Positions 1,485-23,449 of a DNA stretch of 24,000 nucleotides are shown piece after piece. This stretch comes from Synechococcus sp. KORDI-49 (GTDB lineage: Bacteria; Cyanobacteriota; Cyanobacteriia; PCC-6307; Cyanobiaceae): contig NZ_CP006270.1 in NCBI RefSeq assembly GCF_000737575.1, forward strand, positions 41,163 through 65,162, written 5' to 3'. The notes below the pieces were generated by a model, which ran no database searches, was not told the DNA's origin, and saw nothing but the letters and a program-made list of their open reading frames with translations. The translations under genes were made by a program, and so were the position numbers. The first letter of the stretch is position 1; every line of letters starts with the position of its first letter.

Positions 1485-2648
1485 ATGAAGGCTGATCATC
1501 GCGTTCTGCTGTTGTCGCCTGCTTCGAGTCCCGTTGAATTGCGCGGTCTCTGGCATCGCTACGGCGATTCGGCGGAGTCCTGGACGTTGAGAGGGGTGGA
1601 TCTGCAGCTCTCCGAAGGGGAGCTGATCGGCCTGCTGGGGCCCTCTGGATGTGGCAAGACCACCCTGCTGCGCCTGATCGCTGGCTTCGAGACACCGTCC
1701 AGAGGCAGCGTGCATCTGCAGAATCGGCCCGTCGCCGGAGAGGGGCGCTGGCTTCCCCCCGAGCGCAGGGGTGTGGGCATGGTCTTTCAGGACTACGCCC
1801 TCTTCCCCCATCTCACCGCCTGGCAGAACGCCTGTTTCGGTCTTCGCCCCGGTCAGGACGACAGCAGGGCCAGTTGGCTTCTGGATCTTCTCGGTCTGGA
1901 GGGTCTGCAGCAGCGTTACCCCCATCAGTTGTCCGGAGGACAGCGCCAGCGCCTCGCCCTGGCGAGGGCCCTCGCCCCGGCTCCGCAGGTGGTGCTTCTC
2001 GACGAACCGTTCTCCAATCTCGATGTGGAGGTGCGTCTGCGGCTTCGCAGTGAGCTCTCCACCGTGCTGCGCCTCTGCGGTGCCAGCGGCCTGCTGGTCA
2101 CCCACGATCCCGGCGAAGCGCTGGCGATCTGCGACCGGGTCGCCGTGATGCGGGATGGCGTTCTGCATCAGTGCGCCAGTCCACGATCCCTGGTGCAGGA
2201 CCCGGCGACACCTTTTGTTGGTCGCTTCGTGCTTCAGGGCAATCTGCTGCCGGTGGATCAGGAGACGGATGGCCGGCTTCGCTGCGATCTCGGCCTGCTC
2301 GAGCCGGTTGACGACATGCCGATCGACCCTCTCCCGGACCGCTCAACGGTGCTGGTGGATCCTGGTGCGATCGCGCTGGAGGTGGACCCGGAGGCCGAAC
2401 CCTGTGTGATGGGGCGTGAGTTTCTGGGTCAGGCCTGGCAGTACCGCATTCAGGCCGGTGACCTGCATCTGCGGCTGAGTGTTCCCCTGGATCAGGATGT
2501 TCCTCGTGGAACGCGATGCCGGCTGACGTTCCGGCCGGAGGCCACAGCCATCCTCTTTCCCCATCGGATCAGGGTGCGCGCCAGTGATCCTTGTGATGAC
2601 GCAACTCAGCGAGCTGTTCCGCGGACTCGGCCTGCAGAAAAAGGTTGA
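1485..2648 (+). CDS. ABC transporter ATP-binding protein (CysA/PotA/FbpC-type importer ATPase with a C-terminal regulatory, TOBE-like extension)
   Basis: Walker [11 protein letters not shown]-loop [11 protein letters not shown], signature [15 protein letters not shown], Walker [14 protein letters not shown]-loop LLVTHD, followed by a ~140-aa C-terminal domain. No permease or binding-protein gene is adjacent. The start could lie a few codons downstream. Confidence 0.9.
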
Positions 2649-3318
2649 TGCGCCGCTCGGCCCCGATCGAGCTCGGCAGGCTCAGCTCTCCCCTCCGGCG
2701 CAGGGCCACCACGTCCCGATAGCGGCTGGCGATCGCTTCATCGTTGGGCCGATGCTGCAAAGCCCAGTGCAGATTCGCTTCCGTGTATTCATGGGCGCAG
2801 CAGACCTTGGTGCGGTCCGGCAGGCCAGCCAGCCGCTGCATCGCCCGGTGCATGTCCGCCGGCGTTCCTTCCATCAGTCGTCCGCACCCAGCTGAGAACA
2901 GGGTGTCCCCGCAGAACAGGACGGGGCCGAGATCCGGGTCCTCCTCTTCAGGCAGCAGGAAGGCGATGTGATTGGCGGTGTGGGCCGCCACATCGAGCAC
3001 CTGCAGCTGGCGCCTGAGCAATGGCACCGCATCCCCGTCCGCAACGGAGATGGTCTGGAAGGGGATCCGTGTCCTGTCAGACGCTGCGGCGATCACATCT
3101 GCCGTCGGCCACCGCTCCAGCAGCGCTGGAGTTCCGCCGATGTGGTCGGCATGGTGATGGGTCTGCAACACCGCCACCAGCGTCAGATCCCTCTGCTCCA
3201 GCCAGACCTGAACGGGTTCGGCCACCGCTGGATCCACCACCACGGCGTTCCCGTCGCGCTCCCAGATCCAGATGATGTTGTCCTGCAGCACCGGCAGGGC
3301 ATGAAGCGCGGAACGCAT
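2569..3318 (-). CDS. gloB: hydroxyacylglutathione hydrolase (glyoxalase II), 249 aa
   Basis: From the internal ATG (cat at 3316-3318): '[20 protein letters not shown]...'. Metallo-beta-lactamase motif [10 protein letters not shown]; [12 protein letters not shown]; [14 protein letters not shown]; C-terminal [11 protein letters not shown], typical of GloB. The upstream 68 codons of the track ORF are discarded. Confidence 0.9.
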
Positions 3319-3349
3319 CGTTAAAGTCCAGCCTTGTATCCCGGCCCCC

Positions 3350-4000
3350 ATGATCACCGTCGCACTGGCCAAGGGGGCGCTGCTCAAGGATTCGGTGACC
3401 CGATTCGCGGCGGCCGGGCTCGATTTCTCCGCTGTTCTCGACAAGAACAATCGCCAGTTGATGTTGCCCACCCCCTGCGGTCGGGCCCGCGCCCTGCTAG
3501 TGCGCAATGGAGATGTTCCCACCTACGTGGCCTATGGCCAGGCCCAGCTCGGTGTGGTGGGGTACGACGTTCTTCGGGAGCACCAGCTCCCCGTCGCCCA
3601 GCTGGTGGACCTCGGTTTCGGCGGCTGCCGCATGGCGGTGGCGGTGAAGGCCAGCAGCGGTTACACCCGTGCCGCCGACCTGCCCCCCCACTGCCGTGTC
3701 GCCAGCAAGTTCACCCACTGTGCCCGGGCGTTCTTCGATGCTCTCGACCTGCCTGTGGAGCTGGTGCATCTGAACGGTTCCGTCGAACTCGGCCCGATCA
3801 CCGGCATGTCGGAGGCGATCGTTGATCTGGTGGCCACCGGCCGCACCCTGCGGGACAACGGGCTGGTGGCGATCGAGGATCTGTTCCAGTCCACCGCCCG
3901 CCTGGTGGGCCATCCCCTGTCCCTGCGCCTCGACACGGGCGAACTGGGAGCCATTGTTGACGCCATGCGCCTTGCGCAACCGGTCGGAGCCATGGCCTGA
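3350..4000 (+). CDS. hisG: ATP phosphoribosyltransferase, short form (216 aa)
   Basis: '[15 protein letters not shown]...[27 protein letters not shown]...[15 protein letters not shown]...[28 protein letters not shown]' matches HisG along its whole length. The length fits the HisZ-dependent short form. Confidence 0.92.
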
Positions 4001-8816: not shown

Positions 8817-10199
8817 ATGGCAGTGGCGGTGCTGACGGGCGAGGAGCTCTGGAACCAGGTGCAGCAGGGGCTGCAGACCAAGCTCAGCAAGCCCACCTTC
8901 GAAACATTCATCCGGCCCACGGGCTGCAGCGGCTTCGCCAACGGAGAACTGAAGCTGCTCGCTCCCAACCCGTTCGCCAGCATCCGGCTGAGGGAGCAGC
9001 TGCTCCCCACCATCGCCGAGCTGGCCAGCTCGGTGTGCGGTCAGGCAGTGCAGGTCACGGTTCTGGCGGACACCGCTCTGGCGCCACCCGACAACGCCCC
9101 GTCCGACCCGGTGGAGGCGCCTGCACCGGCTCCCTCAGGAGGATCCGGGCCTCCACCACGGCGCTATCTGCCGGGACTGAACCCCCGCTATGTGTTCAGT
9201 CGCTTCGTGGTGGGTCCCAACAGCCGCATGGCCCATGCCGCTGCCCTGGCCGTGGCGGAAGCTCCCGGCCGTGAGTTCAATCCACTGTTTCTCTGCGGCG
9301 GCGTCGGTCTGGGCAAGACCCATCTCATGCAGGCCATCGGTCACTACAGGCTTGAGATCGATCCCGATGCCCATGTGGCCTACGTCTCCACCGAGACCTT
9401 CACCAATGACCTCATCGACAGCATCAGCAAGAAGAGCACCAAGGCCTTCCGCGACCGCTACCGCGCTGCAGATCTGCTGCTGGTGGATGACATCCAGTTC
9501 ATCGAAGGCAAGGAGTACACCCAGGAGGAGTTCTTTCACACCTTCAATGCCCTGCATGAGGCGGGAAAGCAGGTGGTGATCGCCAGCGACAGGCCCCCCA
9601 GTCAGATCCCCCGACTGCAGCAGCGGCTGATCTCTCGGTTCCAGATGGGGCTGATCGCCGACATCCAGGCCCCGGATCTGGAGACCCGCATGGCGATTCT
9701 CCAGAAGAAGGCGGAGCAGGAGCGCATGGCGTTGCCCCGCGATCTGATTCACTACATCGCCGGACGCTTCACCTCCAACATCCGCGAGCTGGAGGGGGCT
9801 TTCACAAGGGCTGTGGCCTTCGCCTCGATCACGGGCCTGCCGATGACGGTGGAGTCGGTGGCACCGATGCTCGATCCCACGGGGCAGGGGGTGAAGGTGA
9901 CGCCGCAGCAGGTGATCGAGAAGGTGTCGGAGGTCTTCGATGTCACGGCCGATGAGATGCGCAGCAGCACCCGTCGCCGTGCGGTCAGTCAGGCCAGGCA
10001 GGTGGGCATGTACCTGATGCGCCAGGGAACGGATCTCAGTCTTCCCCGCATCGGCGACACCTTCGGCGGCAAGGATCACACCACCGTGATGTACGCGATC
10101 GAGCAGGTGGAGAAGAAGCTCTCTGCGGATCCTCAGCTGGCCGGCCAGGTGCAGAAGGTGCGGGATCTGCTCCAGATCGATTCACGCCGGCGCCGCTGA
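8817..10199 (+). CDS. dnaA: chromosomal replication initiator protein DnaA (460 aa)
   Basis: Domain I '[24 protein letters not shown]'; AAA+ Walker [11 protein letters not shown]; Walker [10 protein letters not shown]; 'NIRELEGA'; C-terminal DNA-binding helix '[11 protein letters not shown]'. A GAGGGAG purine stretch sits immediately upstream of the ATG. Confidence 0.95.
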
Positions 10200-10918: not shown

Positions 10919-12175
10919 CTATCTCAGAAAGGCCTGGGGATCCTGGTCGTATCGATCCCGGATCGGCAGCGGTCGGGGAGCGGCCGGGCCATCCAGTGCT
11001 GCCGTCGCCTCGAGACACTGCCGCAGCAGCCGCGCCGCCGGCAGCGGCATGTCTCTCGGAACGGAGATTCGATCCCGGAGATACCGCAGTCCGGCTGCAC
11101 TTCCGGAGGTCGGTCGGCAGGGGCGTCCGGTGATCAGCTGGGTCAGTGCGGCGCGCAGGGGCTGATCGAACCGCTCGCTCCCGAGGGGGTTCAGCGCCAG
11201 CAGCTGGTCACGGTGTCGCATCACCCGACCAAGGGCAAGAGCTGTTGTCCGCTTCGGATCGTCGTCGGTCCAGCTGGTTTCGTCCTGTCCGAGCCCGTCG
11301 CCGCGATCAATGGCTTCCGCCAGTGACTGCTGGCTCTCGGAAACATCCGGCCAGCAGCCGCCCATCTGCGGCGGAAGATCATGGGCATGGGTGTGCATGT
11401 CGCTCTGGGTGCCCCGGTAGGTCTCCAGCTGTTCAAGAGCCGCAAACCAGCGATCGATCGCCGGATGTTCGCGACGGAGGCGATAGCCCTTGTAGTAGGC
11501 CAGGGAGGCGTTCATCCGCTCCACGTAGGGCACGAACACCAGGTCCACGCCGCCCGGTCCCTGGTCATCCAGCCACGGACCAGGGGTCTGCTCCAGGGCC
11601 TGTTCCATCCGTTGCGCCGTGCGCTGGAACTGGTCGCGGGCCTGCTGCTGCTGTCTCGGCCTCAGGCCCGGGGAGCAGAGCCAGAGACACCAGGCCCGGA
11701 AGAGCAGACGCTCCAGCTGCCGCAGCTCCAGAGCCCGTGGATCCATCAGCGGCAGGCCGAGCGGTCCGAAGGCCTGCTCCAGGCTCAGCAGGATCACGTC
11801 GCTTTCGGTGATCAGCTGTCCGTCCAGCTCAAGGGCGGGAAGCATTCCCGATGGCACCAGCTGCAGAAACCAGGGCTCCTTGCTGCCGTAGCAGCGCATC
11901 GTCACCTTGCGGATGCGGTACGGGATGCGCTGGAACTCAAGCCACAGCCACACTTTCTGGCAGTAAGGGCACCAGGCGTGATGGTCGCGGTAGAGGGTGA
12001 CCCTGACGTCGGATTCGGAGTGCCCGAACAGACGCAGAACGGCCTGGGAGCTGGTGGGACCGTTGATGCGGTCCGGTTCCTGGCCGATGTACTGACTTAA
12101 CTGCTCCCAGCTCTGAGCTTCAGGAGTTGCCGGTGTAGGGGGCATGCAGGATCGGCGCGACGTTCCCTCTGCCAT
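10919..12175 (-). CDS. glutathione S-transferase-like protein with a glutaredoxin-type CPYC motif (418 aa; 408 aa if started at ATG 12145)
   Basis: 'VTLYRDHHAWCPYCQKVWLWLEFQRIPYRIRKVTMRCYGSKEPWFLQLVPSGMLPALELDGQLITESDVIL' is a thioredoxin-fold GST_N pattern (CPYC, cis-Pro region, ES motif). It is followed by a long helical C-terminal region. Confidence 0.8.
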   Translation of the reverse strand: MAEGTSRRSCMPPTPATPEAQSWEQLSQYIGQEPDRINGPTSSQAVLRLFGHSESDVRVTLYRDHHAWCPYCQKVWLWLEFQRIPYRIRKVTMRCYGSKEPWFLQLVPSGMLPALELDGQLITESDVILLSLEQAFGPLGLPLMDPRALELRQLERLLFRAWCLWLCSPGLRPRQQQQARDQFQRTAQRMEQALEQTPGPWLDDQGPGGVDLVFVPYVERMNASLAYYKGYRLRREHPAIDRWFAALEQLETYRGTQSDMHTHAHDLPPQMGGCWPDVSESQQSLAEAIDRGDGLGQDETSWTDDDPKRTTALALGRVMRHRDQLLALNPLGSERFDQPLRAALTQLITGRPCRPTSGSAAGLRYLRDRISVPRDMPLPAARLLRQCLEATAALDGPAAPRPLPIRDRYDQDPQAFLR

Positions 12176-12419: not shown

Positions 12420-12488
12420 TTCCCGGACCATAACTCTGCCTTTACCTAAGCGCAGGTGTTCCCGGGCACCCGTCTCCGCTTCCCGGGC
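12420..12488. promoter_or_regulatory. three copies of TTCCCGG(G/A)C in the gor / small-ORF divergent intergenic region
   Basis: Exact 9-mers TTCCCGGGC at 12459-12467 and 12480-12488 (21-bp spacing), plus TTCCCGGAC at 12420-12428. Each contains the palindrome CCCGGG or a near copy. They lie 34-100 bp upstream of the gor ATG at 12522. Confidence 0.25.
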
Positions 12489-12521
12489 GTCAAGAGAATG
12501 GGACCCCCTGAGGTGTTGCGG

Positions 12522-13898
12522 ATGGATGCCGATTTTGATCTGATCGTTCTGGGAGCGGGTTCCGGTGGTCTGGCTGCCGCCAAGCGGGCGGTTCGCCACG
12601 GGGCGCGGGTGGCGATTGCGGAAGGAGATCGGGTCGGGGGGACCTGCGTGATCCGTGGCTGTGTTCCGAAAAAGCTGCTGGTCTACGGCGCGCAGGCCCG
12701 GCATCAGCTGCAGGACGCGCCCTCCTATGGCCTGCACGTGGAGGCTGTGCGCTCGGATGTGAGTGAACTGCTGGAGCGCGTGCGTTCGGAGGTTGATCGC
12801 CTCAACCTCCGCCATCGCCAGATGCTCTCGGAGGCCGGGGTGGAGTTGCTGCAGGGCTGGGGCCGGTTCACGGCTCCTGATCGCATCGGTCTGTCCGCCA
12901 CGCCCGGTGGACCGATCGAGCGAGAGCTCGGAGCAGCCCGGATTCTGATCGCCGTCGGCGGTCAGCCGATCCGGCCCTCGATCCCCGGCGCGGAACACAC
13001 CTGGCTGAGTGACGACATGTTCCTGCAGGAGACCTACCCGGATCAGGTCGTGGTGGTGGGTGCTGGATTCATCGCCTGTGAATTCGCCTGCATCCTCCGG
13101 GGCCTCGGGGTCTCGGTGACCCAGGTGGTGCGGGGCTCCCGTCTGCTGCGGGGCTTTGACCATGAGCTGGCCGATGCGGTTCTGACCGGGATGCAGGACA
13201 GCGGCATCCAGGTGTTGTTCGATCGCACGGTCCATGCCGTCGACCGCGTGTCGCCCGATGACCCGTCAGCCGGGTTGACGGTGGAGCTGTCTGATGGCCG
13301 CCACCTCCCCTGCGGCGGCGTGCTGATGGCCACGGGCCGTCGTCCCCGGCTGGAGGGGCTCGGCCTCGAGATCGCCGGCGTCGCGGTCGACCGTGGACGC
13401 GTTCTGGTGGATGCGGATCAGGCCACGTCCGTGCCCCACATCCATGCCGTCGGCGACGTCACCGATCGGATCAACCTCACACCGGTGGCCATCGATGAAG
13501 GCAGGGCCTATGCCGACAGCGTCTTCGGCGGCAGGCCGCGGCAGGTGAATCACGACCTGGTGGCCACCGCGGTGTTCTCCGACCCGGAACTGGCCAGCGT
13601 CGGATTGTCGGAACAGGCTGCGATCGAGCGCTTCGGCGAGGAAGCGGTCACGGTGCACCGGGCCCGCTTCCGTTCGATGTCCAGAGCGCTTCCCGCCAGC
13701 GGTCATCGCTGTCTGCTGAAGCTTGTGTTGCAGCGGGAGGGAGGCCGTGTGCTCGGCTGCCACATGGTGGGAGAGCACGCCGCGGAGATCATCCAGATGG
13801 CGGCCATCGCCGTTGGAATGGGAGCCACCAAGGCTGATTTCGATCGCACCATGGCGCTGCATCCCTCCGTCTCGGAGGAGTTCGTGACCATGGGGTGA
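12522..13898 (+). CDS. gor: glutathione-disulfide reductase (458 aa)
   Basis: From the internal ATG 12522: 'MDADFDLIVLGAGSGGLAAAKRA' (FAD GxGxxG); redox-active disulfide 'GGTCVIRGCVPKK'; NADPH site 'VVVVGAGFIACEFA' with 'VVRGSRLLRGFD'; C-terminal 'ALHPSVSEEFVTM' (His-Glu pair). ATG 12498 is an alternative start. Confidence 0.9.
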   Translation: MDADFDLIVLGAGSGGLAAAKRAVRHGARVAIAEGDRVGGTCVIRGCVPKKLLVYGAQARHQLQDAPSYGLHVEAVRSDVSELLERVRSEVDRLNLRHRQMLSEAGVELLQGWGRFTAPDRIGLSATPGGPIERELGAARILIAVGGQPIRPSIPGAEHTWLSDDMFLQETYPDQVVVVGAGFIACEFACILRGLGVSVTQVVRGSRLLRGFDHELADAVLTGMQDSGIQVLFDRTVHAVDRVSPDDPSAGLTVELSDGRHLPCGGVLMATGRRPRLEGLGLEIAGVAVDRGRVLVDADQATSVPHIHAVGDVTDRINLTPVAIDEGRAYADSVFGGRPRQVNHDLVATAVFSDPELASVGLSEQAAIERFGEEAVTVHRARFRSMSRALPASGHRCLLKLVLQREGGRVLGCHMVGEHAAEIIQMAAIAVGMGATKADFDRTMALHPSVSEEFVTMG

Positions 13899-13973: not shown

Positions 13974-14486
13974 TTGATCCGGTTGTTCGGCGCTGAGGCA
14001 CTGAAGCAGGGAGGTGCGCTGATGGCACCGTTGCTGCTGCTCTCCATCGCTGTGCTCTCAGCAGGATTCGAGCGCCTGATCTACTGGCTGAGCTGGAGGC
14101 GGGAGCAGCCCGGTTGCCTCGATGCCCTCCGGACCTCCCTGTCAGGGCTGACCAACGCCGAAGCCAGCAGGGTGCTCGAACAGAAACTGCGCCGACTGGA
14201 TCGCCAATTCAGCCGCTGGGAGCCCAGCCTTGATCTGGCGATGGTGCTGGGTCCCCTGATGGGGTTGCTCAGCACGGTGCTGGGACTGATGAAACTTCTC
14301 CAGGCCCTCGGTCCGGATCTCCTGCTTCCCAGGGGGGAGACCCTGCTGTCGGATTACGGGACCATTCTGGTAGGCACGGCTCTCGGGCTGGTGGTGGCGA
14401 TGGTGGCGCTGCTGGTGCAGCGCATCAATCGCATGCAGCGCCGGTCCGTTGTGGCGCAGTTGCGCGAGGCCTGTCTGGAGGTCTGA
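13974..14486 (+). CDS. MotA/TolQ/ExbB-family proton-channel protein (170 aa from TTG; 154 aa from ATG 14022)
   Basis: Three predicted TM helices. 'KQGGALMAPLLLLSIAVLSAGFERLIYW', 'LGPLMGLLSTVLGLM' and 'GTALGLVVAMVALLVQRI' match the family signature helices (canonical APLLGLLGTVxG and ALxTTAxGLxVAIPA). The TTG start retains the conserved segment preceding TM1. Confidence 0.8.
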   Translation: MIRLFGAEALKQGGALMAPLLLLSIAVLSAGFERLIYWLSWRREQPGCLDALRTSLSGLTNAEASRVLEQKLRRLDRQFSRWEPSLDLAMVLGPLMGLLSTVLGLMKLLQALGPDLLLPRGETLLSDYGTILVGTALGLVVAMVALLVQRINRMQRRSVVAQLREACLEV

Positions 14487-14843
14487 ATGCCGCTTGTCCT
14501 CGCCCTCAGCGCTGTCACCGTGACGTTGACGACAGCCCTGGCACTGCTCCCGAGTGCTCTAAGAGAGACACCGATCGAGAGTCCAAGCGTCCCCCTGGTC
14601 GACAGCCAGGCCGAACGCTGGTTCGTTGTGCGCTCCTCCAGCGGCAGCTGGTATCTGAACGGCGAGCCGATGGCCTCCAATCTTCTGGCTCGGATCCTCA
14701 TGGGGCCGGACCTGCCTCCGGGTGGCGTCAGCTTCCTGCCGTCCAGTGCCAGATCGGCCTCGCTGGTGGCCGACGATCTGGCCTGGCTACAGAGCAACAG
14801 CGCTGGTCCGGTGCGTCTGCAGCTGGAGGAGATCCAGCTGTGA
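14487..14843 (+). CDS. divergent ExbD/TolR-like protein 1 (118 aa)
   Basis: The ATG directly follows the exbB-like TGA. It has a single N-terminal TM (MPLVLALSAVTVTLTTALALL). The ~90-aa periplasmic part, 'WFVVRSSSGSWYLNGEPMASNLLARIL...VSFLPSSARSASLVADDLAWLQSNSAGPVRLQL', follows the ExbD pattern: strand-turn-strand, L-N-G-x-P, then a slowly varying block ending in a V-x-L strand. It has no cytoplasmic tail and no TM Asp. Confidence 0.5.
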   Translation: MPLVLALSAVTVTLTTALALLPSALRETPIESPSVPLVDSQAERWFVVRSSSGSWYLNGEPMASNLLARILMGPDLPPGGVSFLPSSARSASLVADDLAWLQSNSAGPVRLQLEEIQL

Positions 14844-15196
14844 CCTCCTCCTCTCTGCGCTGGTCGGTCGGTTTCTCCCTGGTCGCCGTGTCCCAGCTGC
14901 TGCTGATCACGGGATTGATCGTTCTGCCCCAGTGGCGGGCCCAGATGTCTGCCCGGGATGGGGTGATCACCTTCTTCGTGGGTAGGGACGGTTCAGTCCG
15001 TCTCTGGAATCGCCCCATCGATGCGGCGGTGATGCCCGCCCTGGTTCAACGGGCCGAACGCTTCAACGCCACCGCCCGCGTGCGGCTGGTGGCGTCACCC
15101 GGGGTCACCTGGGGTGTGGTGCAGGACCTTGTCTCCCTTCTTGATCAGACATCACTCGATGTTGAACTTCAGCTCCCTCCGACAGCGCGCTCCTGA
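14840..15196 (+). CDS. divergent ExbD/TolR-like protein 2 (118 aa)
   Basis: The GTG start overlaps the preceding stop (GTGA). TM 'WSVGFSLVAVSQLLLITGLIVL' is followed by 'VITFFVGRDGSVRLWNRPIDAAVMPALVQRAERFNATARVRLVASPGVTWGVVQDLVSLLDQTSLDVELQL', which has the same ExbD-like layout as the gene before it. No TM Asp. Confidence 0.5.
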   Translation: MTSSSLRWSVGFSLVAVSQLLLITGLIVLPQWRAQMSARDGVITFFVGRDGSVRLWNRPIDAAVMPALVQRAERFNATARVRLVASPGVTWGVVQDLVSLLDQTSLDVELQLPPTARS

Positions 15197-15827
15197 GCTG
15201 CTGCTGCTCGCACTTCCCGTCGGCCTCTCTCTGGTTGTTCACAGCGTCTGGATCTCCAGAGACGGCGCTGAAAGCAGAGTGGGTGATTCGGACCAGAGCG
15301 TCAGCATCGACAACACCGCCCAGCTGGTGCGGATCACCCGACGGGCATCACAACAGCAGACGCTGGCTGCTGTGGGGTTGGATCTGAGCGGCACGCTTCC
15401 TCCCCCGGCTGCCGACGTGCTGCAGAAGATCGAGCTGCCTGACCCCAAGCCGGACTGCCCACCCCAGCAACAACGGGTGACCACCAAGGTGCTGCCGGAT
15501 GTCAGTGCACCAACGGCGATTCCGGCACCCCAGGAGCAGACGGCTCAGCGGCAGGAATCGGTCGTTGCAACGGCGCCGAGCGCGCCGTTGCAAGCGCTGG
15601 ACGGGGTCGCTCTCGATCGGCTGTGGGGACTGGCGATGGGGGTGCCGGTCTGGCCGGAAGACCTGCTGGGGCCGAAGCCGGTGATCGGAGAACTGCGGGA
15701 GCTCTCGCTCGACGACGTTGCCGACATGGATGCAACGGATCTTCATGAGCTCTCCGTTGAGGCGGAGTCCGGCACCTATCTGGTGAAGGTTTTCGGAGAC
15801 AGGGTTTTCCTGCTGAGAGAACCCTGA
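15159..15827 (+). CDS. TonB-like membrane-anchored protein: SxxxH anchor, Pro-rich spacer, unassigned C-terminal domain (222 aa)
   Basis: From ATG 15159 (38-nt overlap with the previous gene): 'MLNFSSLRQRAPELLLLALPVGLSLVVHSVWI'. A basic patch precedes a TM helix containing S-L-V-V-H (codons at 15228-15242), compared with E. coli TonB S-V-C-I-H. A Pro/Gln-rich stretch follows ('LPPPAADVLQKIELPDPKPDCPPQQQ...PTAIPAPQEQ', about 15391-15540), then a ~75-aa C-terminal domain without the TonB_C YP motif. Confidence 0.55.
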   Translation: MLNFSSLRQRAPELLLLALPVGLSLVVHSVWISRDGAESRVGDSDQSVSIDNTAQLVRITRRASQQQTLAAVGLDLSGTLPPPAADVLQKIELPDPKPDCPPQQQRVTTKVLPDVSAPTAIPAPQEQTAQRQESVVATAPSAPLQALDGVALDRLWGLAMGVPVWPEDLLGPKPVIGELRELSLDDVADMDATDLHELSVEAESGTYLVKVFGDRVFLLREP

Positions 15828-15898: not shown

Positions 15899-16378
15899 AT
15901 GCCCACTCTCCTGCTTCTGCTCCTCGCGTCGTGGCTTGGGGTGGGAACCGTGCAGGGGGGCGAGTGGTGCAGGTCTCAGGAGGGGGCGGTCGGCAGTTAC
16001 GACCCCGGACGGCAGGAGATCAACCTGTGCATGGAGCGGATCCGTGAGAAACAGCGATCCCCGATGGAAGTGGCGCGGCACGAGCTGTTTCATGCCGTGC
16101 AGCACCTGTTCGGGCGCAATGGCCGCAGTTTCCTCAGTGATGACCAGATCACGCCCCTGGTGCGCTGGCTGATGGACGACGGTGAAGTGATGGCCGTGCT
16201 CATGCTCTATCCCAGTGAGGAGATCAACAGCGAGCTGGAGGCACGTCTCGTGTCGCGATTGCTGCCCAATGAGGTCATCGGTGGTGCTCTGCTGGCAGGT
16301 CGGCTGCTCCAGGACGCACCACAGCAGGGACCGATCGGATCCTTGCGGGCCTACCTGCTCGGTCGCCCTGATTCCTGA
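15899..16378 (+). CDS. secreted small protein with an HExxHxxxH metal-binding-type motif (159 aa)
   Basis: Signal peptide 'MPTLLLLLLASWLGVGTVQG'; two Cys (C24, C44); 'VARHELFHAVQH' forms an HExxH zincin-like motif with a third His four residues later. It resembles the 'HELxHVxQ' core I recall from DUF4157. It lies on the same strand as the TonB-like gene, 71 nt downstream. Confidence 0.6.
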   Translation: MPTLLLLLLASWLGVGTVQGGEWCRSQEGAVGSYDPGRQEINLCMERIREKQRSPMEVARHELFHAVQHLFGRNGRSFLSDDQITPLVRWLMDDGEVMAVLMLYPSEEINSELEARLVSRLLPNEVIGGALLAGRLLQDAPQQGPIGSLRAYLLGRPDS

Positions 16379-16388
16379 TGTCCGACGC

Positions 16389-17894
16389 TTAGGCGAGGGT
16401 GTCCGCCAGGCGAAGGGCCAGCGCGATCACCGTGAGGCCCGGTCCGACGCTCGGACAGCTCGGGAAGACACTCGCATCGGCGAGGTAGAGGTTGTCAAGC
16501 TCATGGCACTTGCCGAAGCCATCGACCACGGAGCTCGAGGGATCCTCACCCATGCGGCAGGAACCGCAGCCATAACCCACAACGCTCATCGGTGCTCCAC
16601 CGCGGGCATGGGTGGGTGCCTTCAACACCACCTTGGTCACCGGATCCTTCTCCACCTCCTTCAGGGTGTCGATCCAGCGGTAGACCAAGCGGTCATGCGC
16701 TTCCCGGTTGTTGTGGATGTAATTGATCCTGATCTGGTCGTTGTGCAGCCAGATCTTGTTATGGGGATCCGGCATCACCTCCGTCATCGCCCACCAGGCG
16801 ACGGAGCGGGACGCCAGTCGCTCAAGGCCGAAATCGGGGATCATTTTGCTCACCAGGGAAAGCACTGGTGGTGACTCGGCAAACAACGCGTCCTGCAGAA
16901 CGCCTCCGGCTGTCTGGATGTGGCCAAGCGGGAAGCTGACGTTCTTGTCACCCCAGTAGTAGTCGTTGATGCCCAGAGAGCGCCCGTATCTGCCGCTGTT
17001 GCGTTCCGTGGCCAGCTGCAGGATCGAGGTGAGCTGAAGATTCATCAGATTGCGGCCCACCTGATCGGAGCCGTTGCTGATGCCTTTGGGGTGGTGCGAG
17101 TTCGCCGAACGCAGCAGGATCACCGGGGTGTTCACGGCCCCGGCCGCCAGCACCACGACATCAGAGCGGAACAGCCAGGTGTCGCCATCCAGCTCCGCCT
17201 CCACGGCCTTCACCTCACTGCCGCTGGGGTTCACATGCAGTCGCAGCACCCTGGCGTTGTCGCGGATGGTGAGCCGGTCTGGATCTCCGGCTTCAAGGCC
17301 GAACAGCTGGGAATCGCCGCTCGGGTCGTCCCGATCTTCGGACCAGCTGATCGGAATGTCGTACGGCTGGCATCCCTGGCGTTGCAGCGCGGCACGCAGG
17401 GGTTCGAGGAACGGCTCCACCGGCTTGGGCATGGCCACGTAATCACCGTTGCGGCCCGGCTCGGTGGGGTCCACCCCCGCCTTGCCGTGCACCCGGTACA
17501 ACTGCTCCGCCTGCTCGTAGTACGACGCCAGTTCGCCGTAGTCGAATGGCCAGGCCGGCGAGATCCCCTCCTGAAGAGGAACTTCGCCGAAGTCCTGCTC
17601 GCGCATGCGCTCGAGCACAGCTCCCCAGATCTTGGTGTTGCCGCCGCGGGCGTAGGTGGTCTGGGGCGCGAAGGGATCGCCGTCCGGCCCGAACCAGCGT
17701 TCGTTCTTGGGGTGGTAGCGGTCCTTGCGGAACAGATCCACGTCGGCGACGTTCTGGTCCTCGAGAGCCATGGCCCCGCCGCGCTCCAGCACCAGCACGG
17801 ATTTGCCCTTGCGGCTGAGGGCACCGGCCAGGGTGCCGCCACCGGCTCCGCTGCCGATGACGATGACGTCGTAATGGCGGTCGTCGATGATCAT
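16389..17894 (-). CDS. GMC-family FAD-dependent oxidoreductase (501 aa)
   Basis: N-terminal 'YDVIVIGSGAGGGTLAGALSRKGKSVLVLERGG' (FAD ADP-binding fold), mid 'VVVLAAGAVNTPVILLRS', C-terminal 'LYLADASVFPSCPSVGPGLTVIALALRLADTL' (GMC_oxred_C). The start lies 4 nt after the ctaE stop. Confidence 0.88.
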   Translation of the reverse strand: MIIDDRHYDVIVIGSGAGGGTLAGALSRKGKSVLVLERGGAMALEDQNVADVDLFRKDRYHPKNERWFGPDGDPFAPQTTYARGGNTKIWGAVLERMREQDFGEVPLQEGISPAWPFDYGELASYYEQAEQLYRVHGKAGVDPTEPGRNGDYVAMPKPVEPFLEPLRAALQRQGCQPYDIPISWSEDRDDPSGDSQLFGLEAGDPDRLTIRDNARVLRLHVNPSGSEVKAVEAELDGDTWLFRSDVVVLAAGAVNTPVILLRSANSHHPKGISNGSDQVGRNLMNLQLTSILQLATERNSGRYGRSLGINDYYWGDKNVSFPLGHIQTAGGVLQDALFAESPPVLSLVSKMIPDFGLERLASRSVAWWAMTEVMPDPHNKIWLHNDQIRINYIHNNREAHDRLVYRWIDTLKEVEKDPVTKVVLKAPTHARGGAPMSVVGYGCGSCRMGEDPSSSVVDGFGKCHELDNLYLADASVFPSCPSVGPGLTVIALALRLADTLA

Positions 17895-17898
17895 GGGA

Positions 17899-18495
17899 TT
17901 ACTGCCAGACGTAGATGAGGAGGAAGAGGATGATCCAGATCACATCGACGAAGTGCCAGAACAGGCTCACCGAAGCGACGCCCATTTCGCCCTTGTCGTA
18001 ATTCCCCGGACGAAAGGAACGCGCCAGCATCAGGCCCATCAGCAGGATGCCGGTGATCACGTGCAGACCGTGAAAGCCGGTGAGCAGATAAAACATCCCG
18101 CCGAACACACCGCTGCTGAGGCTGAAGGTGAGCTCCGACCATTCGACGTACTGCCCGTAGACGAAGTACGAGCCCATGGCCATGGTGAGCAGCCACACCG
18201 CCCGGAAGCCCCAGAGGTTGCGCTGATGCAGGTAGCGCTCAGCGAAGTAGGCAACAAAGCTGGAGCTCACCAGCACCACGGTGTTGATCAGTGGCATGCG
18301 CACCTCCAACCCCGCGACACCATCCGGGAGCCATTGGGGGGCCGTGAGCTTGAGCACCGCGTAGCCGGCGAAGAAGGCCAGGAAGATCACGCTCTCGGAG
18401 CAGAGGAAGATCACGAAACCGGTCATGTTGTGACCGTCGTGCTTCACATGCCCGGGGGTGTGATTCAGCTGCAGATCGGGGTTGACGCTGGTCAT
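17899..18495 (-). CDS. ctaE: heme-copper oxidase subunit III (198 aa)
   Basis: 'GFVIFLCSESVIFLAFFAGY...FGGMFYLLTGFHGLHVITGILLM...SVSLFWHFVDVIWIILFLLIYVW' is the typical COX3 sequence. The start lies 4 nt after the ctaD stop. Confidence 0.93.
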   Translation of the reverse strand: MTSVNPDLQLNHTPGHVKHDGHNMTGFVIFLCSESVIFLAFFAGYAVLKLTAPQWLPDGVAGLEVRMPLINTVVLVSSSFVAYFAERYLHQRNLWGFRAVWLLTMAMGSYFVYGQYVEWSELTFSLSSGVFGGMFYLLTGFHGLHVITGILLMGLMLARSFRPGNYDKGEMGVASVSLFWHFVDVIWIILFLLIYVWQ

Positions 18496-18499
18496 CGGG

Positions 18500-20188
<1,689 letters not shown>

Positions 20189-20196
20189 GGCGCGTC

Positions 20197-21132
20197 TCAG
20201 GCGTCGTGGGGGATGGAGGGATCGCCGGGGTCGTTCACCATCGGAGCCGGTGCGGGTGGCACCGTTGCCCAGCCCTTGTCACCGCGGGCGATGCGGCGGT
20301 CATACAGCGGGCGGCCTGGATCGAGTCCGGGCTGCAGAGGCTGCTGGGCTGTTGTTTTCAGCCAAGCGCTGAAGGCCTCCTCCGATTCGACGATCACGTC
20401 GGTCTGGTTCTGCGAGAAGTACGCGCCGCTGAACATGGCGTCGCGCAGCCGGAAGCGGCCTTCTTTGGTTGGCGTGAGGCTGTAGGAAATGATGCTTCCG
20501 GGGATGATGTCCTGCTTCAGACGGAAGGCCGGAACGAAGAAGCTGTGCAGCACGTCTTCCGAGATCAGCCGGAAATTGACCCGTTGATCAATCGGAAGAT
20601 GCAGTTCTGAACTGCGCACACCATTGGGGTAGATGAATTCCCAGCTCCACTGGCGGGCGATCACATCGATCGGTCCCACATCCGCCATGGGATCGGCTTC
20701 CATCAGTGCGGTCGGATCGGTGCCGATGACGTATTTGTGCTTCGGACCGAGGGTCTGAAGCTTCATGTTCACGTTCATCGTGTAGGTGGCGATCACAAAG
20801 ACCGTCACCAGCGGAATGATCGTCCAGATGATTTCCAGCTTGGTGTTGCCTTCGATCGGAGCACCGTCGCTTTCGTCGTACTTGCCGGCCCGGTTGAACA
20901 GCAGCACCCAGCCCATCACTCCGGTGCAGCCGAAGAAGATGAAGGAGCCGATACCGGTTTCAAGCGCGAACAGATCGTCGACGTAGGACGCTGCACTGGA
21001 TGCCTGCGGCGGGAACCAGCTGTACGACCAGGTCGCCATCAGTTTGGCGATCACCAGGTTGATCGCCACGGCGATCGTGATGCCCACGATGGCGCCGATG
21101 TTCGGGCTTTTCTTGGGGGCAGTGGTGGTCAT
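20197..21132 (-). CDS. ctaC: heme-copper oxidase subunit II lacking the CuA centre (ARTO/quinol-oxidase-type CtaC), 311 aa
   Basis: COX2 fold: two N-terminal TMs, 'ARQWSWEFIYPNG' and 'SEDVLHSFFVPAFRLKQDIIPG'. Where the CuA pattern V-x-H-x(34)-C-x(3)-C-x(3)-H-x(2)-M is expected, the sequence reads V-L-H196-x(34)-D231-x(3)-S235-x(3)-F239-x(2)-N242. Confidence 0.9.
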   Translation of the reverse strand: MTTTAPKKSPNIGAIVGITIAVAINLVIAKLMATWSYSWFPPQASSAASYVDDLFALETGIGSFIFFGCTGVMGWVLLFNRAGKYDESDGAPIEGNTKLEIIWTIIPLVTVFVIATYTMNVNMKLQTLGPKHKYVIGTDPTALMEADPMADVGPIDVIARQWSWEFIYPNGVRSSELHLPIDQRVNFRLISEDVLHSFFVPAFRLKQDIIPGSIISYSLTPTKEGRFRLRDAMFSGAYFSQNQTDVIVESEEAFSAWLKTTAQQPLQPGLDPGRPLYDRRIARGDKGWATVPPAPAPMVNDPGDPSIPHDA

Positions 21133-21749
21133 GGCAGCACCTCCTTCAGATCGGCACCGGCGGCGAGCAGCTGATCCGCGGTGATGTGCACGCCGAAATC
21201 ACTGGCCAGCCAGGCGCCGAGACTGCCGTGCAGACCCATGACCATCAGCATCGAGGCCCCGCAGAACAGGTACAGCCAGGTCACCTGGCGTCCCAGATCC
21301 CTGCGCCAGACGAAGCGCTGGTAGCCGCGCCAGACGGTCATGGCGACGATCACCAGAAGAATGGCGACCCCCCCGATGGCATGCCACAGCATGGTGTCGA
21401 TGGCGGTCTGGCCGAGGATGCTGCGGATGCCGGGCAGCGGCACCGCCAGCAGCATTTCGTAGAAACCGGCGGCCACCGTGAAGAAGGTGATGCCGCTGCA
21501 GGCCACCAGGTTGTACCAGCCCACATCGTGGAAACCGCTGCGGGTCACCGGCAGGGCCAGGAAGCGGAACAGCCGCTTCTCCAGCGGATAGAAGGCACCG
21601 GCGAAGTCGAAGGCGATTCCGATCGCAAACAGCCCGATGGTCAGATGAACCAGATTCGGGTGCAGTGGAATCGCGTAGGGAAGATCATTGGCACCGAGAG
21701 AGTCGGCGATTTCGTTGATCGGCGATGGGATGGCGGCGAGCAGGGTCAT
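21129..21749 (-). CDS. DUF2231-like polytopic membrane protein B (206 aa)
   Basis: From the internal ATG 21749 ('MTLLAAIPSPINE...'), which overlaps the upstream stop (ATGA). Its own stop overlaps the ctaC ATG (ATGA). It has 4-5 TM helices and conserved His motifs 'LHPNLVHLTIG', 'MLWHAIGG' and 'MGLHGSLG'. Confidence 0.7.
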   Translation of the reverse strand: MTLLAAIPSPINEIADSLGANDLPYAIPLHPNLVHLTIGLFAIGIAFDFAGAFYPLEKRLFRFLALPVTRSGFHDVGWYNLVACSGITFFTVAAGFYEMLLAVPLPGIRSILGQTAIDTMLWHAIGGVAILLVIVAMTVWRGYQRFVWRRDLGRQVTWLYLFCGASMLMVMGLHGSLGAWLASDFGVHITADQLLAAGADLKEVLP

Positions 21750-22246
21750 GACACCACTCCCTGGCGGATCGCTTCCACCACCGGCACGGTGTGCAATCCG
21801 TAGACCCACACCAGTTTGTCGCCGAGATACACCTGGACGAACACCAGACCGGCCAGCACGAGATCAAGAGCCAGAAAGCCCTTCGGCAGGACAGTGGGAT
21901 CCTTCTGGCGAGCCACGTAGCGCCATCCGGTGAGCAGAGCCAGCACACCGGCAAGGGACCAGCCGATGGTGCTGTGGACATTGAGGATGTCTCGCGAGGC
22001 CCCGTAGGGATTGGCGAGGCCGGCTTCGATCTGTCCGAAGATGATGGCAACGAAGATCGCTACTGTGGCGACGAGCAGATTCCAGAAGCTCACTTCAAAG
22101 AGGTTCTTCTTTCCGGTCACCACCCCGATCACGTCGAAGACGACCGTGATCAGTGCCATGGAGATCACGAAGTGGACGACGATCGGATGAATGACGTCGA
22201 GCCAGGGGAGATTTTTATCGTTGAGCGCAGGTAGAAGATCGAGCAT
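21746..22246 (-). CDS. DUF2231-like polytopic membrane protein A (166 aa from ATG 22246; 172 aa from GTG 22264)
   Basis: 'MLDLLPALNDKNLPWLDVIHPIVVHFVISMALI...NVHSTIGWSL...YGLHTVP' has four TM helices and carries the same His motif set as protein B (HPxxVH, HxxIG, GLH). It is the first gene of the oxidase block. Confidence 0.7.
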   Translation of the reverse strand: MLDLLPALNDKNLPWLDVIHPIVVHFVISMALITVVFDVIGVVTGKKNLFEVSFWNLLVATVAIFVAIIFGQIEAGLANPYGASRDILNVHSTIGWSLAGVLALLTGWRYVARQKDPTVLPKGFLALDLVLAGLVFVQVYLGDKLVWVYGLHTVPVVEAIRQGVVS

Positions 22247-22339
22247 CGGCAAGCCGAGAGGCACGCTTCCAAAGCATGGACATCGTTTTCGGGACGGTCA
22301 TCCCTGAATGTGGAAATACAACTGGCCTGGTTGTCTGAC

Positions 22340-23449
22340 TCACCTGAGGGAGTGATCGGCGCTACGGCGCGTCGTGCGCCAGTAGATGACCGCCTGCGTG
22401 ATGATCAGAATCATCACGATCGGCATCACCAGGCAGAGAATCGCCAGCCGGTATTCATCAGACCATTCCGACAACTGGGTTCTGGGAAGAACGTTGTCGG
22501 TGATGTACAGCACATAGAGGCCGAGCAGCAGCCCCCCTTCCAGACGGCTGATCTGACCTCGGGTCCAGAAGATCGGCAGGCAGGCCAGGCTGGTGAGCAG
22601 CATCACCGGAAGGTCTTCGCTGATCAGCTCCGGGCTCACGTCCAGGCCGCGCCCTGCGGCCATCAGGGCTCCGCCGCCCAGCACCATCATCAGATTGAGC
22701 AGGCAGCTGCCCACCACGTTGCCGATCGCCAGATCGGTGCGCCCCCGCAACGCCGCCACCAGGGAGGTGATCAGCTCCGGCATCGAGGTGCCCGCCGAGA
22801 CAATCGTGAGTCCGATCACGGCTTCACTGACGCCGAGCAGTGTGGCCGCTGTGGTGGCTCCGCCCACCAGCACCTTCGATCCAATCGTCAGCACGACGAT
22901 GCCGGCGAGCAGCTTCAGAACCGCCACCTGCCAGCCACCACTGGCCGCATCCGCATCGATCTCCGGTTCCGCCCCTTCGGTGGCATCCGGTTCCTCCCTG
23001 GCCGTGCGGATCTCCCAGATGGTGTTGATCACAAGGCCCAGCAGCAGGGCGATGCCGGCCTGCCAGGTCAACCGTCCTGCAGAGGCCATGCCCCAGACCG
23101 CTGCGGAGATGGCGATCATCAGCGGAACATCCCGACGCACCAGTCGGCTTTCAACGCGCAGCGGCAACACCACGGCGCTGCTGCCCAGCACCACCATCAC
23201 ATTGAAGATGTTGCTGCCCACCGCGTTGCTCACCGCCAGGGCATCAGCGCCCTGCAGCACTGAATTGATGCTCACGAACAGTTCGGGAGCGCTGGTGCCC
23301 AGAGCCACCACGGTCAGGCCGATCACCAGCTGTGGGATGCCGAAGATCACCGCCAGGGCGACGGCCCCCTGCACGAATAGTTCGCCGCCACCGAACAGCA
23401 GGGCGATACCGATCAGCACTTCCAGTGACGCCTGCAGGAATTCCGGCAT
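22340..23449 (-). CDS. CaCA-family cation/Ca2+ antiporter (YrbG/NCKX-like), 369 aa
   Basis: Two alpha-repeats, 'GLTVVALGTSAPELFVSI' and 'GLTIVSAGTSMPELITSL', each followed by 'GN(A/V)VGSN/C'. About 10 TM helices with a central acidic loop (EEPDATEGAEPEIDADA). Confidence 0.9.
   Translation of the reverse strand: MPEFLQASLEVLIGIALLFGGGELFVQGAVALAVIFGIPQLVIGLTVVALGTSAPELFVSINSVLQGADALAVSNAVGSNIFNVMVVLGSSAVVLPLRVESRLVRRDVPLMIAISAAVWGMASAGRLTWQAGIALLLGLVINTIWEIRTAREEPDATEGAEPEIDADAASGGWQVAVLKLLAGIVVLTIGSKVLVGGATTAATLLGVSEAVIGLTIVSAGTSMPELITSLVAALRGRTDLAIGNVVGSCLLNLMMVLGGGALMAAGRGLDVSPELISEDLPVMLLTSLACLPIFWTRGQISRLEGGLLLGLYVLYITDNVLPRTQLSEWSDEYRLAILCLVMPIVMILIITQAVIYWRTTRRSADHSLR

Follow-up and report, generated by a model that had tools for sequence, protein, structure and literature searches.

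Background

The cyanobacterial alternative respiratory terminal oxidase (ARTO) has been studied genetically in Synechocystis and Anabaena, and earlier work connects it with heterocyst function and with the uptake of iron. Reviews up to 2026 treat it as a three-subunit enzyme whose details are debatable, with plastoquinol as the presumed donor and O2 reduction taking place on the cytoplasmic membrane. A review describes its operon in Anabaena PCC 7120 as alr2729-alr2730-coxB3-coxA3-coxC3 and reports that NtcA was bound upstream of alr2729. This cox3 operon is NtcA-dependent and no GMC gene appears in its description. Doré et al. (2023) found ctaC2D2E2 in 85% of the Synechococcus reference genomes, and they report an enrichment of the ARTO gene cluster in those Prochlorococcus populations that live at low iron. 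Their dataset 6 lists two DUF2231 clusters, ctaC2, ctaD2, ctaE2 and a "choline dehydrogenase-like flavoprotein" as one co-occurring adjacent gene cluster. A Synechocystis ctaDII/ctaEII mutant is reported (Kranzler et al.) to be impaired in Fe reduction and uptake. This work will focus on a block of six genes in Synechococcus sp. KORDI-49 that belongs to this system. It lies in a stretch of 24,000 nucleotides (NZ_CP006270.1, 41,163-65,162), which we call the window, and all coordinates below are positions in that stretch.

The literature treats ARTO as three subunits and is silent on what the two upstream proteins do. The extra operon genes are discussed neither in the Anabaena review nor in Doré et al. 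(2023). Our search of the literature on Synechocystis sll0814/sll0815 was uninformative, and literature searches on DUF2231 (PF09990) found no functional study of the family. No structure of ARTO turned up in our literature search either.

We regard the KORDI-49 locus as a further member of a known system, with the cyanobacterial ARTO operon present in its complete form. Our favoured reading is that its two DUF2231 proteins would form an oxidase-associated, cofactor-carrying electron-entry module, with the GMC-like flavoprotein as an accessory. Judging from sequence, we give this reading as a whole a probability of about 45%. Three points go beyond the literature that we could find. Each CuA-less oxidase in the 80 sampled loci, which come from many cyanobacterial orders, has the DUF2231 pair with it. 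Invariant histidines that face outward occur where neither of the two known donor sites is present. The catalytic site of the associated flavoprotein is degenerate.

The KORDI-49 operon

In the list of open reading frames (ORFs) of the window, the six genes all lie on the minus strand and run from 22264 down to 16389. DUF2231-A comes first (21746-22264; PF09990, E 1.6e-37). It encodes a four-helix membrane protein and is followed by its paralogue DUF2231-B (21129-21749; PF09990, E 3.6e-36); the matches cover profile positions 2-138 of 139 in both proteins. Next come ctaCII, the CuA-less subunit II of ARTO (20197-21132; Pfam COX2 and COX2_TM), ctaDII, the catalytic subunit I of A2 type (18500-20188; Pfam COX1, E 1.3e-153), and ctaEII, subunit III (17899-18495; Pfam COX3, E 2e-33). 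The block closes with the gene for a GMC-like flavin adenine dinucleotide (FAD) protein (16389-17894). Start and stop codons overlap as ATGA between DUF2231-A and DUF2231-B (21749-21746) and between DUF2231-B and ctaCII (21132-21129). The remaining spacers are 8 nucleotides before ctaDII (20196-20189), 4 before ctaEII (18499-18496) and 4 before the GMC-like gene (17898-17895). The true start of DUF2231-A is probably the ATG at 22246, which gives 166 amino acids, rather than the GTG at 22264, because the orthologues are 165-166 amino acids long and begin at the aligned methionine.

These six genes and their junctions are as the original prediction gave them, and its view of them as one unit is borne out: the unit is tightly packed and conserved. 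It went on to suggest that the block could be a respiratory branch of a kind not known to have been characterised in cyanobacteria, but the oxidase is not an uncharacterised one. The oxidase is ARTO (ctaCII-DII-EII = ctaC2D2E2), an identification made on sequence, which has its own genetic literature; the same six-gene cluster has already been listed for marine picocyanobacteria, Synechococcus and Prochlorococcus alike, and the content of the KORDI-49 block matches the list in dataset 6 of Doré et al. It resembles the ARTO of Synechocystis and Anabaena in its cyanobacterial origin, in being a heme-copper oxidase whose subunit II has no CuA, and in the order of its genes, C-D-E. Like the Anabaena PCC 7120 cox3/Qox operon, it has two small genes upstream in the operon, and it differs from that operon as described by carrying a GMC gene. 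We infer that alr2729 and alr2730 are equivalent to DUF2231-A and DUF2231-B, going by the sampled Nostocales relatives. All of the sampled Nostocales loci, and Trichormus variabilis, have two DUF2231 genes 5' of ctaC.

An oxidase without either known electron-entry site

The intact and the missing parts of the oxidase can be read from alignments. Against subunit II of Thermus caa3, the CuA ligands Cys/Cys/His are replaced in ctaCII by Asp231/Ser235/Phe239. The CuA motif C-x-E-x-C-G-x-x-H reads D-A-M-F-S-G-A-Y-F, so that every CuA ligand after the first histidine is gone, as the original prediction of a CuA-less oxidase had it. The ligands are likewise lost in 70-73 of the 73 ARTO subunit II orthologues, and the CuA cysteines are absent in all 73. 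The second-best PDB match of ctaCII is QoxA of the B. subtilis quinol oxidase (6kob), which is itself CuA-less. The loop that stands in place of the CuA site (ctaCII residues 230-243) has the almost invariant consensus R-D-S-Q-Y-S-G-T-Y-F-A-x-M-Q among the 73 sequences, which suggests that the former CuA pocket is still under selection for some function.

The six metal-binding histidines of the catalytic subunit, ctaDII, are intact (H83, H264, H313, H314, H399 and H401) and are kept in 64 of 64 sequences. They align with H106, H284, H333, H334, H419 and H421 of E. coli CyoB, and they are the ligands of the low-spin heme, the high-spin heme and CuB. The D-channel glutamate, CyoB E286, aligns with Ala266 in 64 of 64, and the motif FYSHPAV is of the A2 type. 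The residues of the bo3 quinol site, CyoB R71/D75/H98/Q101, correspond to V51/L55/V75/G78 in ctaDII, and these positions are non-polar or small in all 64 ARTO subunit I sequences.

We considered whether the enzyme is a bo3-type quinol oxidase and rejected this identity, since the quinol-site residues are absent. The bo3 and aa3-600 oxidases (E. coli CyoABCD, B. subtilis QoxABCD) are relatives in that they are A-family heme-copper oxidases that have lost CuA from subunit II. ARTO differs from them in the replaced quinol residues of CyoB and in the replaced D-channel glutamate (the YS motif of the A2 type), and the KORDI-49 operon includes neither a subunit IV gene nor a gene for heme O synthase. 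These residues show the product of ctaCII-DII-EII to be an O2-reducing heme-copper enzyme of the A2 type. Its heme and CuB ligands are all in place, and both the CuA site and a quinol site of the bo3 type are missing from ARTO.

The DUF2231 pair

DUF2231-A and DUF2231-B are about 24% identical, and B carries an insert between the first and second transmembrane helices (TM1 and TM2). Each protein has four invariant histidines. In A these are H26 and H31 (the HPxxVH motif), H97 and H158, conserved in 100% of 71-82 orthologues; in B they are H30, H35, H123 and H188, conserved in 100% of 81-83. The original prediction had called the pair "His-rich", which overstates totals of 4 and 6 histidines in the two proteins; the four invariant ones in each are what is left of that description. 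An AlphaFold 2 model of DUF2231-A, built from a 150-sequence alignment, has a predicted local distance difference test score (pLDDT) of 88 and a predicted TM-score of 0.80. Its helices span residues 25-50, 54-84, 88-121 and 128-154, with an additional short C-terminal helix. H26 and H31 lie where TM1 begins, H97 in the first part of TM3 and H158 shortly past the end of TM4. This puts the invariant histidines on the same face, and the Lys/Arg-rich loops are on the opposite face. The corresponding model of DUF2231-B, from an alignment of picocyanobacteria only, reached a pLDDT of 55 and is unusable.

Two distant members of the family are fused to redox domains. A plasmid protein of Chondrinema litorale (Bacteroidota; L082:5953-7353) joins DUF2231 to a C-terminal c-type cytochrome domain (CxxCH), and a metagenomic protein (L116:311-1216) joins it to a C-terminal Rieske 2Fe-2S domain. 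Both retain HPxxVH and the TM3 histidine. The cytochrome fusion puts the C-terminus of DUF2231 in the periplasm, and the histidine face must then lie on that side too. The ARTO-linked proteins resemble these redox-fused relatives in the four-helix domain, the HPxxVH motif and the TM3 histidine. They differ in that their domain stands alone, occurs as two diverged paralogues and has an extra invariant histidine after TM4. We found no other direct hints that the DUF2231 family has a role in electron transfer. The cytochrome domain of the Chondrinema protein is of the Planctomycete type, and the protein also has leucine-rich repeat domains.

The B subfamily is narrow: a phmmer search of 1.84 billion representatives with the single DUF2231-B sequence gave 99 matches, mostly fragments. 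Identity is at least about 71-72% across the picocyanobacteria, Prochlorococcus included. Some DUF2231-B proteins from outside the picocyanobacteria (P0254, P0260 and P0265, 303-312 amino acids, at loci such as L001:639-1547) have a C-terminal extension of about 100 residues with the conserved motifs …YYG…LNERxW…LQxALL; the window protein is without this extension.

Conservation of the gene arrangement

The scan covered one genome per prokaryotic species with a DUF2231-B alignment as the query, and it gave at least 583 DUF2231-B loci. Synteny was read from the best 80 of these by tblastn of the six window proteins and simple ORF logic. All of the best 80 are cyanobacterial and they cover many orders, including Chroococcidiopsidaceae, Xenococcaceae, Leptolyngbya, Pseudanabaena, Nostocales, Spirulina, Crocosphaera, Thermosynechococcaceae, Elainellaceae and Microcoleaceae. 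They contain no picocyanobacteria, which were checked separately.

These loci hold 82 DUF2231-B clusters, and DUF2231-A stands immediately 5' of DUF2231-B in 82 of 82. Of these clusters, 76 continue with ctaC, 70 also have ctaD and 60 also have ctaE. The drop-off after DUF2231-B is mostly due to contig ends; a CuA-less ctaC is present wherever the contig continues. In the 73 cases sampled, the pair stands beside CuA-less oxidases only. A GMC homologue on the same strand lies within 4 kb of ctaE in 40 of 60 loci, and about 17 have at least about 2.4 kb free 3' of ctaE yet no GMC gene. The loci that do without it, about a third of the ARTO loci, are mostly Nostocales. We also find the six-gene set on a marine Prochlorococcus-like contig and, in the RefSeq annotation, on plasmid A of Trichormus variabilis ATCC 29413, where cydAB comes next. 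The linkage is thus not a peculiarity of one genome, which the original prediction had named as grounds for its refutation: the DUF2231 pair goes with every CuA-less oxidase sampled, and the GMC gene with about two thirds of them. The association of the DUF2231 gene pair with ARTO is ancient and is not unique to KORDI-49.

The two DUF2231 genes are translationally coupled, and their A/B junction is the tightest, with an overlap of 1 or 4 nucleotides in 76 of the 82 clusters. Our junction statistics choose the nearest start codon and are therefore biased to short distances, but 76 overlaps in 82 are still far beyond chance. The other junctions are looser; the median distance from ctaE to the GMC gene is 179 nucleotides, and it is below 30 nucleotides, measured by alignment ends, in 9 of the 40 loci that have a GMC gene.

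The Trichormus variabilis cluster (L084, NC_007410.1) sits on a conjugative plasmid. Directly 3' of it is cydAB, and 5' of it are a TonB-dependent receptor, a major facilitator superfamily transporter and a BlaI/CopY-type regulator pair. Several cyanobacteria have two DUF2231-ARTO clusters near each other (L001, L021, L039, L075).

The GMC-like flavoprotein

The last protein of the block opens with the FAD-binding GxGxxG motif (GSGAGGG at residues 14-20) and exceeds the Pfam cut-offs for GMC_oxred_N (26.9 bits against 23) and GMC_oxred_C (66.3 against 24.6). It has no membrane segment and no signal peptide, and from the latter we take it to be cytoplasmic. Its nearest solved relatives are the alpha subunit of the FAD-dependent glucose dehydrogenase (FAD-GDH) of B. 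cepacia (6a2u/8hdd, E 2.5e-25) and, next, the large subunit of the fructose dehydrogenase (FDH) of Gluconobacter (7w2j, E about 7e-22). Full-length relatives (33-38% identical) come from rhizobia, Burkholderiaceae, Streptomyces, Bacteroidota and Priestia, and are usually encoded among genes of sugar metabolism. These non-cyanobacterial proteins keep the catalytic histidine (HQxGT), the partner asparagine (AVNP) and a CxxCxxCx4C motif, which, from the gap in the alignment and general knowledge of the enzyme, we take to be the Fe-S-binding Cys-rich region of the B. cepacia protein.

In the window protein the positions of the catalytic histidine (HxxGT) and asparagine are Tyr441 and Gly484, and the CxxCxxCx4C segment is deleted. 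Among 120 picocyanobacterial homologues, position 441 is Ser in 50, Tyr in 45, Phe in 23 and His in 1, and position 484 is Gly in 104 and Pro in 13. The 39 ARTO-linked sequences (38 loci and the window) have His in 22, Asn in 12 and Tyr in 5 at position 441, and mostly Ser at position 484. The Fe-S motif is found in 0 of the 120 picocyanobacterial and 3 of the 39 ARTO-linked sequences. A different pair of cysteines appears directly after the lost histidine site, a CxxC at 443-446 (CGSC here, CGTC mostly). It is conserved in 118-119 of the 120 picocyanobacterial proteins and in 35-36 of the 39 other ARTO-linked copies, whereas the non-cyanobacterial relatives usually have at most one of the two cysteines. 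It might be a redox-active disulfide beside the flavin.

The protein is like FAD-GDH and FDH in being homologous to their catalytic subunits and encoded beside respiratory components. It is unlike them in that it lacks the 3Fe-4S-type Cys cluster and has neither a cytochrome c subunit nor a twin-arginine translocation (Tat) small subunit as partner, in the replacement of the catalytic His and Asn, and in being cytoplasmic rather than periplasmic. No gene for a cytochrome c subunit or a Tat small subunit was found in the six-gene block. Identity among the picocyanobacterial copies is 66-99%. The ARTO-linked clade appears to have lost the standard dehydrogenase machinery progressively while under strong purifying selection, and from its residues we think it most improbable that the window protein works as an ordinary dehydrogenase of alcohols or sugars.

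Two canonical relatives outside the cyanobacteria are worth recording. One, on a Paraburkholderia fungorum plasmid (L087), is followed by genes for a DoxX-family membrane protein and a gluconolactonase. The other, on a Streptomyces canus plasmid (L086), is back-to-back with cydAB. The ancestral GMC enzyme may already have been tied to the respiratory chain.

How would ARTO receive its electrons?

In the account we favour, DUF2231-A and DUF2231-B would form a 1:1 membrane heterodimer within the oxidase complex. Each would hold a His-ligated redox cofactor near the periplasmic or lumenal surface, which is the side where CuA normally sits; the simplest candidate is a heme of b type between the histidines of TM1 and TM3. 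The module would take electrons from plastoquinol or another P-side donor and pass them to the low-spin heme of CtaDII, and it would in this way make up for the absent CuA or quinol site. The flavoprotein would be a cytoplasmic and dispensable accessory. We do not see it as the main electron source because the canonical dehydrogenase machinery has been lost in this genome; if it is still redox-active, it could act through the quinone pool or through the conserved CxxC-plus-FAD site. A more far-reaching statement is that ARTO would be a five-subunit enzyme, with the DUF2231-A/B heterodimer an unrecognised entry module that replaces both CuA and the bo3-type quinol site, and with the CxxC-bearing GMC-like protein a cytoplasmic partner in some non-dehydrogenase role (thiol-linked or regulatory redox). 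We put that forward tentatively, as a possibility we would not yet bet on.

Several observations count against the entry module. The histidine geometry of DUF2231 comes from the secondary structure of a model and not from coordinates. Foldseek searches of the PDB with the DUF2231-A model gave generic four-helix bundles only (best E 0.5, TM-score at most 0.54), and sequence and profile searches of the PDB with the DUF2231 proteins gave 0 matches. The pairs of histidines at two depths that mark a classical transmembrane di-heme cytochrome b, of the b561 or NarI kind, are not seen in the modelled DUF2231. We found no biochemical report of a DUF2231 protein binding heme or metal or co-purifying with ARTO. 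The neighbours of non-cyanobacterial DUF2231 genes, in a metagenome scan and in pooled Pfam data, are heterogeneous, with no recurrent redox partner and no general link to oxidases; the oxidase link is therefore a property of the cyanobacterial subfamily. A tblastn search of plasmids with a proteobacterial DUF2231 returned only the query itself. Finally, the high conservation of the GMC-like protein shows that it has an important role which our account leaves unspecified.

Tight operon linkage is also a weak guide, since it suits a dedicated chaperone as well as a subunit. The DUF2231 pair could instead be assembly or maturation factors specific to ARTO, giving heme or copper to CtaDII from the periplasmic or lumenal side. 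Clusters of histidines on the outer membrane face are typical of heme- and copper-handling membrane proteins, and the DUF2231-A model has a weak Foldseek match to the heme lyase CcmF (6zmq, probability 0.57). The difficulty is that heme and CuB must equally be inserted into the canonical cytochrome c oxidase of cyanobacteria, yet among the 73 sampled cases the pair adjoins only CuA-less oxidases. The cytochrome c and Rieske fusions point to electron transfer and not to cofactor delivery, and the high conservation of both paralogues together with the near-universal A/B overlap suggests a stoichiometric structural pair. We think a pure assembly role unlikely; the redox-domain fusions and the exclusive tie to CuA-less oxidases favour an entry module over it, modestly.

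It could also be that the flavoprotein supplies the electrons, as the original prediction proposed: it would oxidise a small organic substrate and feed ARTO through quinone or through the DUF2231 pair, making a self-contained substrate:O2 branch. GMC enzymes such as choline dehydrogenase do reduce quinone directly. The gene follows ctaE on the same strand in 40 of 60 loci and belongs to the picocyanobacterial cluster, the solved relatives are catalytic subunits of membrane-linked sugar dehydrogenases, and the non-cyanobacterial relatives resemble sugar dehydrogenases that have an Fe-S relay; one of them stands before a DoxX gene and one beside cydAB. The protein itself is a poor fit to this scheme. 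Its catalytic pair has become Tyr and Gly, with the histidine kept only once in 120 picocyanobacterial sequences. The Fe-S motif is missing from all 120 and present in just 3 of the 39 other ARTO-linked copies, the block has no cytochrome c or Tat small-subunit gene, and about a third of the ARTO loci with room for the gene are without it, as is the functional Anabaena cox3 operon in its published description. Direct transfer from flavoprotein to DUF2231 is topologically awkward as well, with a cytoplasmic donor and histidine clusters that face the periplasm or lumen. It is still plausible that the DUF2231 pair has a part in passing electrons to the oxidase, but the GMC-like protein as the source of those electrons finds little support, and we consider the scheme improbable.

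The complex might on the other hand serve mainly in iron acquisition, with electrons leaving through the outward DUF2231 sites to periplasmic Fe(III), much as in a ferric reductase. The reported phenotype of the Synechocystis mutant and the enrichment of the cluster in low-iron Prochlorococcus fit this, as do the TonB-dependent receptor beside the Trichormus variabilis cluster, the ExbB-like gene cluster beside the KORDI-49 block and weak fold matches that include STEAP1 and cytochrome b561. Those matches are not significant, however, and the published connection to iron is indirect. The oxidase retains all the residues that O2 reduction requires, and with the histidines all on one side no transmembrane route for electrons is obvious in DUF2231 itself. 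We regard this as the least probable of the explanations.

Surroundings of the operon

The block is bordered on its 3' side by a convergent gene whose stop is at 16378 and on its 5' side by a Na/Ca-exchanger gene (22340-23449). Between the exchanger and DUF2231-A is a spacer of 75 nucleotides (22265-22339, on the minus strand as 5' of the first gene), the sole site in the block with room for a promoter. A scan with the sigma-70 consensus found no promoter-like site in the block. The consensus scan for terminators found none between the genes, and the number of terminator-like sites was at chance level; these scans speak neither for nor against a single transcript. By eye we spotted a candidate motif, GTA-N8-TTC at 22319-22306 (minus strand), one base off the NtcA consensus GTA-N8-TAC, inside the spacer and about 42 nucleotides before the GTG of the first gene. 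As the original prediction stated, ctaA and ctaB are not nearby: neither is among the window ORFs scanned.

The G+C content of the window is about 63%, and its nearest homologues are in Synechococcus, Vulcanococcus and freshwater Cyanobiaceae, with Prochlorococcus more distant. On both counts the window belongs to a picocyanobacterium.

Convergent on the ARTO block, at 13974-15827 on the plus strand, is what looks like an ExbB-ExbD-TonB-type set. It begins with an ExbB/MotA-family gene (13974-14486; PF01618, E 5.7e-13), downstream of which are two ORFs of 118 amino acids and then a proline-rich ORF of 237 amino acids without a Pfam match. This set may bear on the proposed link between ARTO and iron. 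Glutathione-related genes also occur in the window, a hydroxyacylglutathione-hydrolase-like gene (2569-3522, minus strand), a glutathione S-transferase-like gene (10919-12175, minus strand) and a glutathione-reductase-like pyridine nucleotide-disulfide oxidoreductase (12456-13898, plus strand). They are probably ordinary core-genome context beside dnaA (8817-10199), and we record them solely on account of the CxxC flavoprotein.

Conclusions

The annotation "GMC oxidoreductase" should not be taken at face value in ARTO operons. ARTO is widespread, and both its electron donor and its real set of subunits are long-standing questions. We believe these findings make the question of how ARTO receives its electrons directly testable, and they give a first functional lead for DUF2231.

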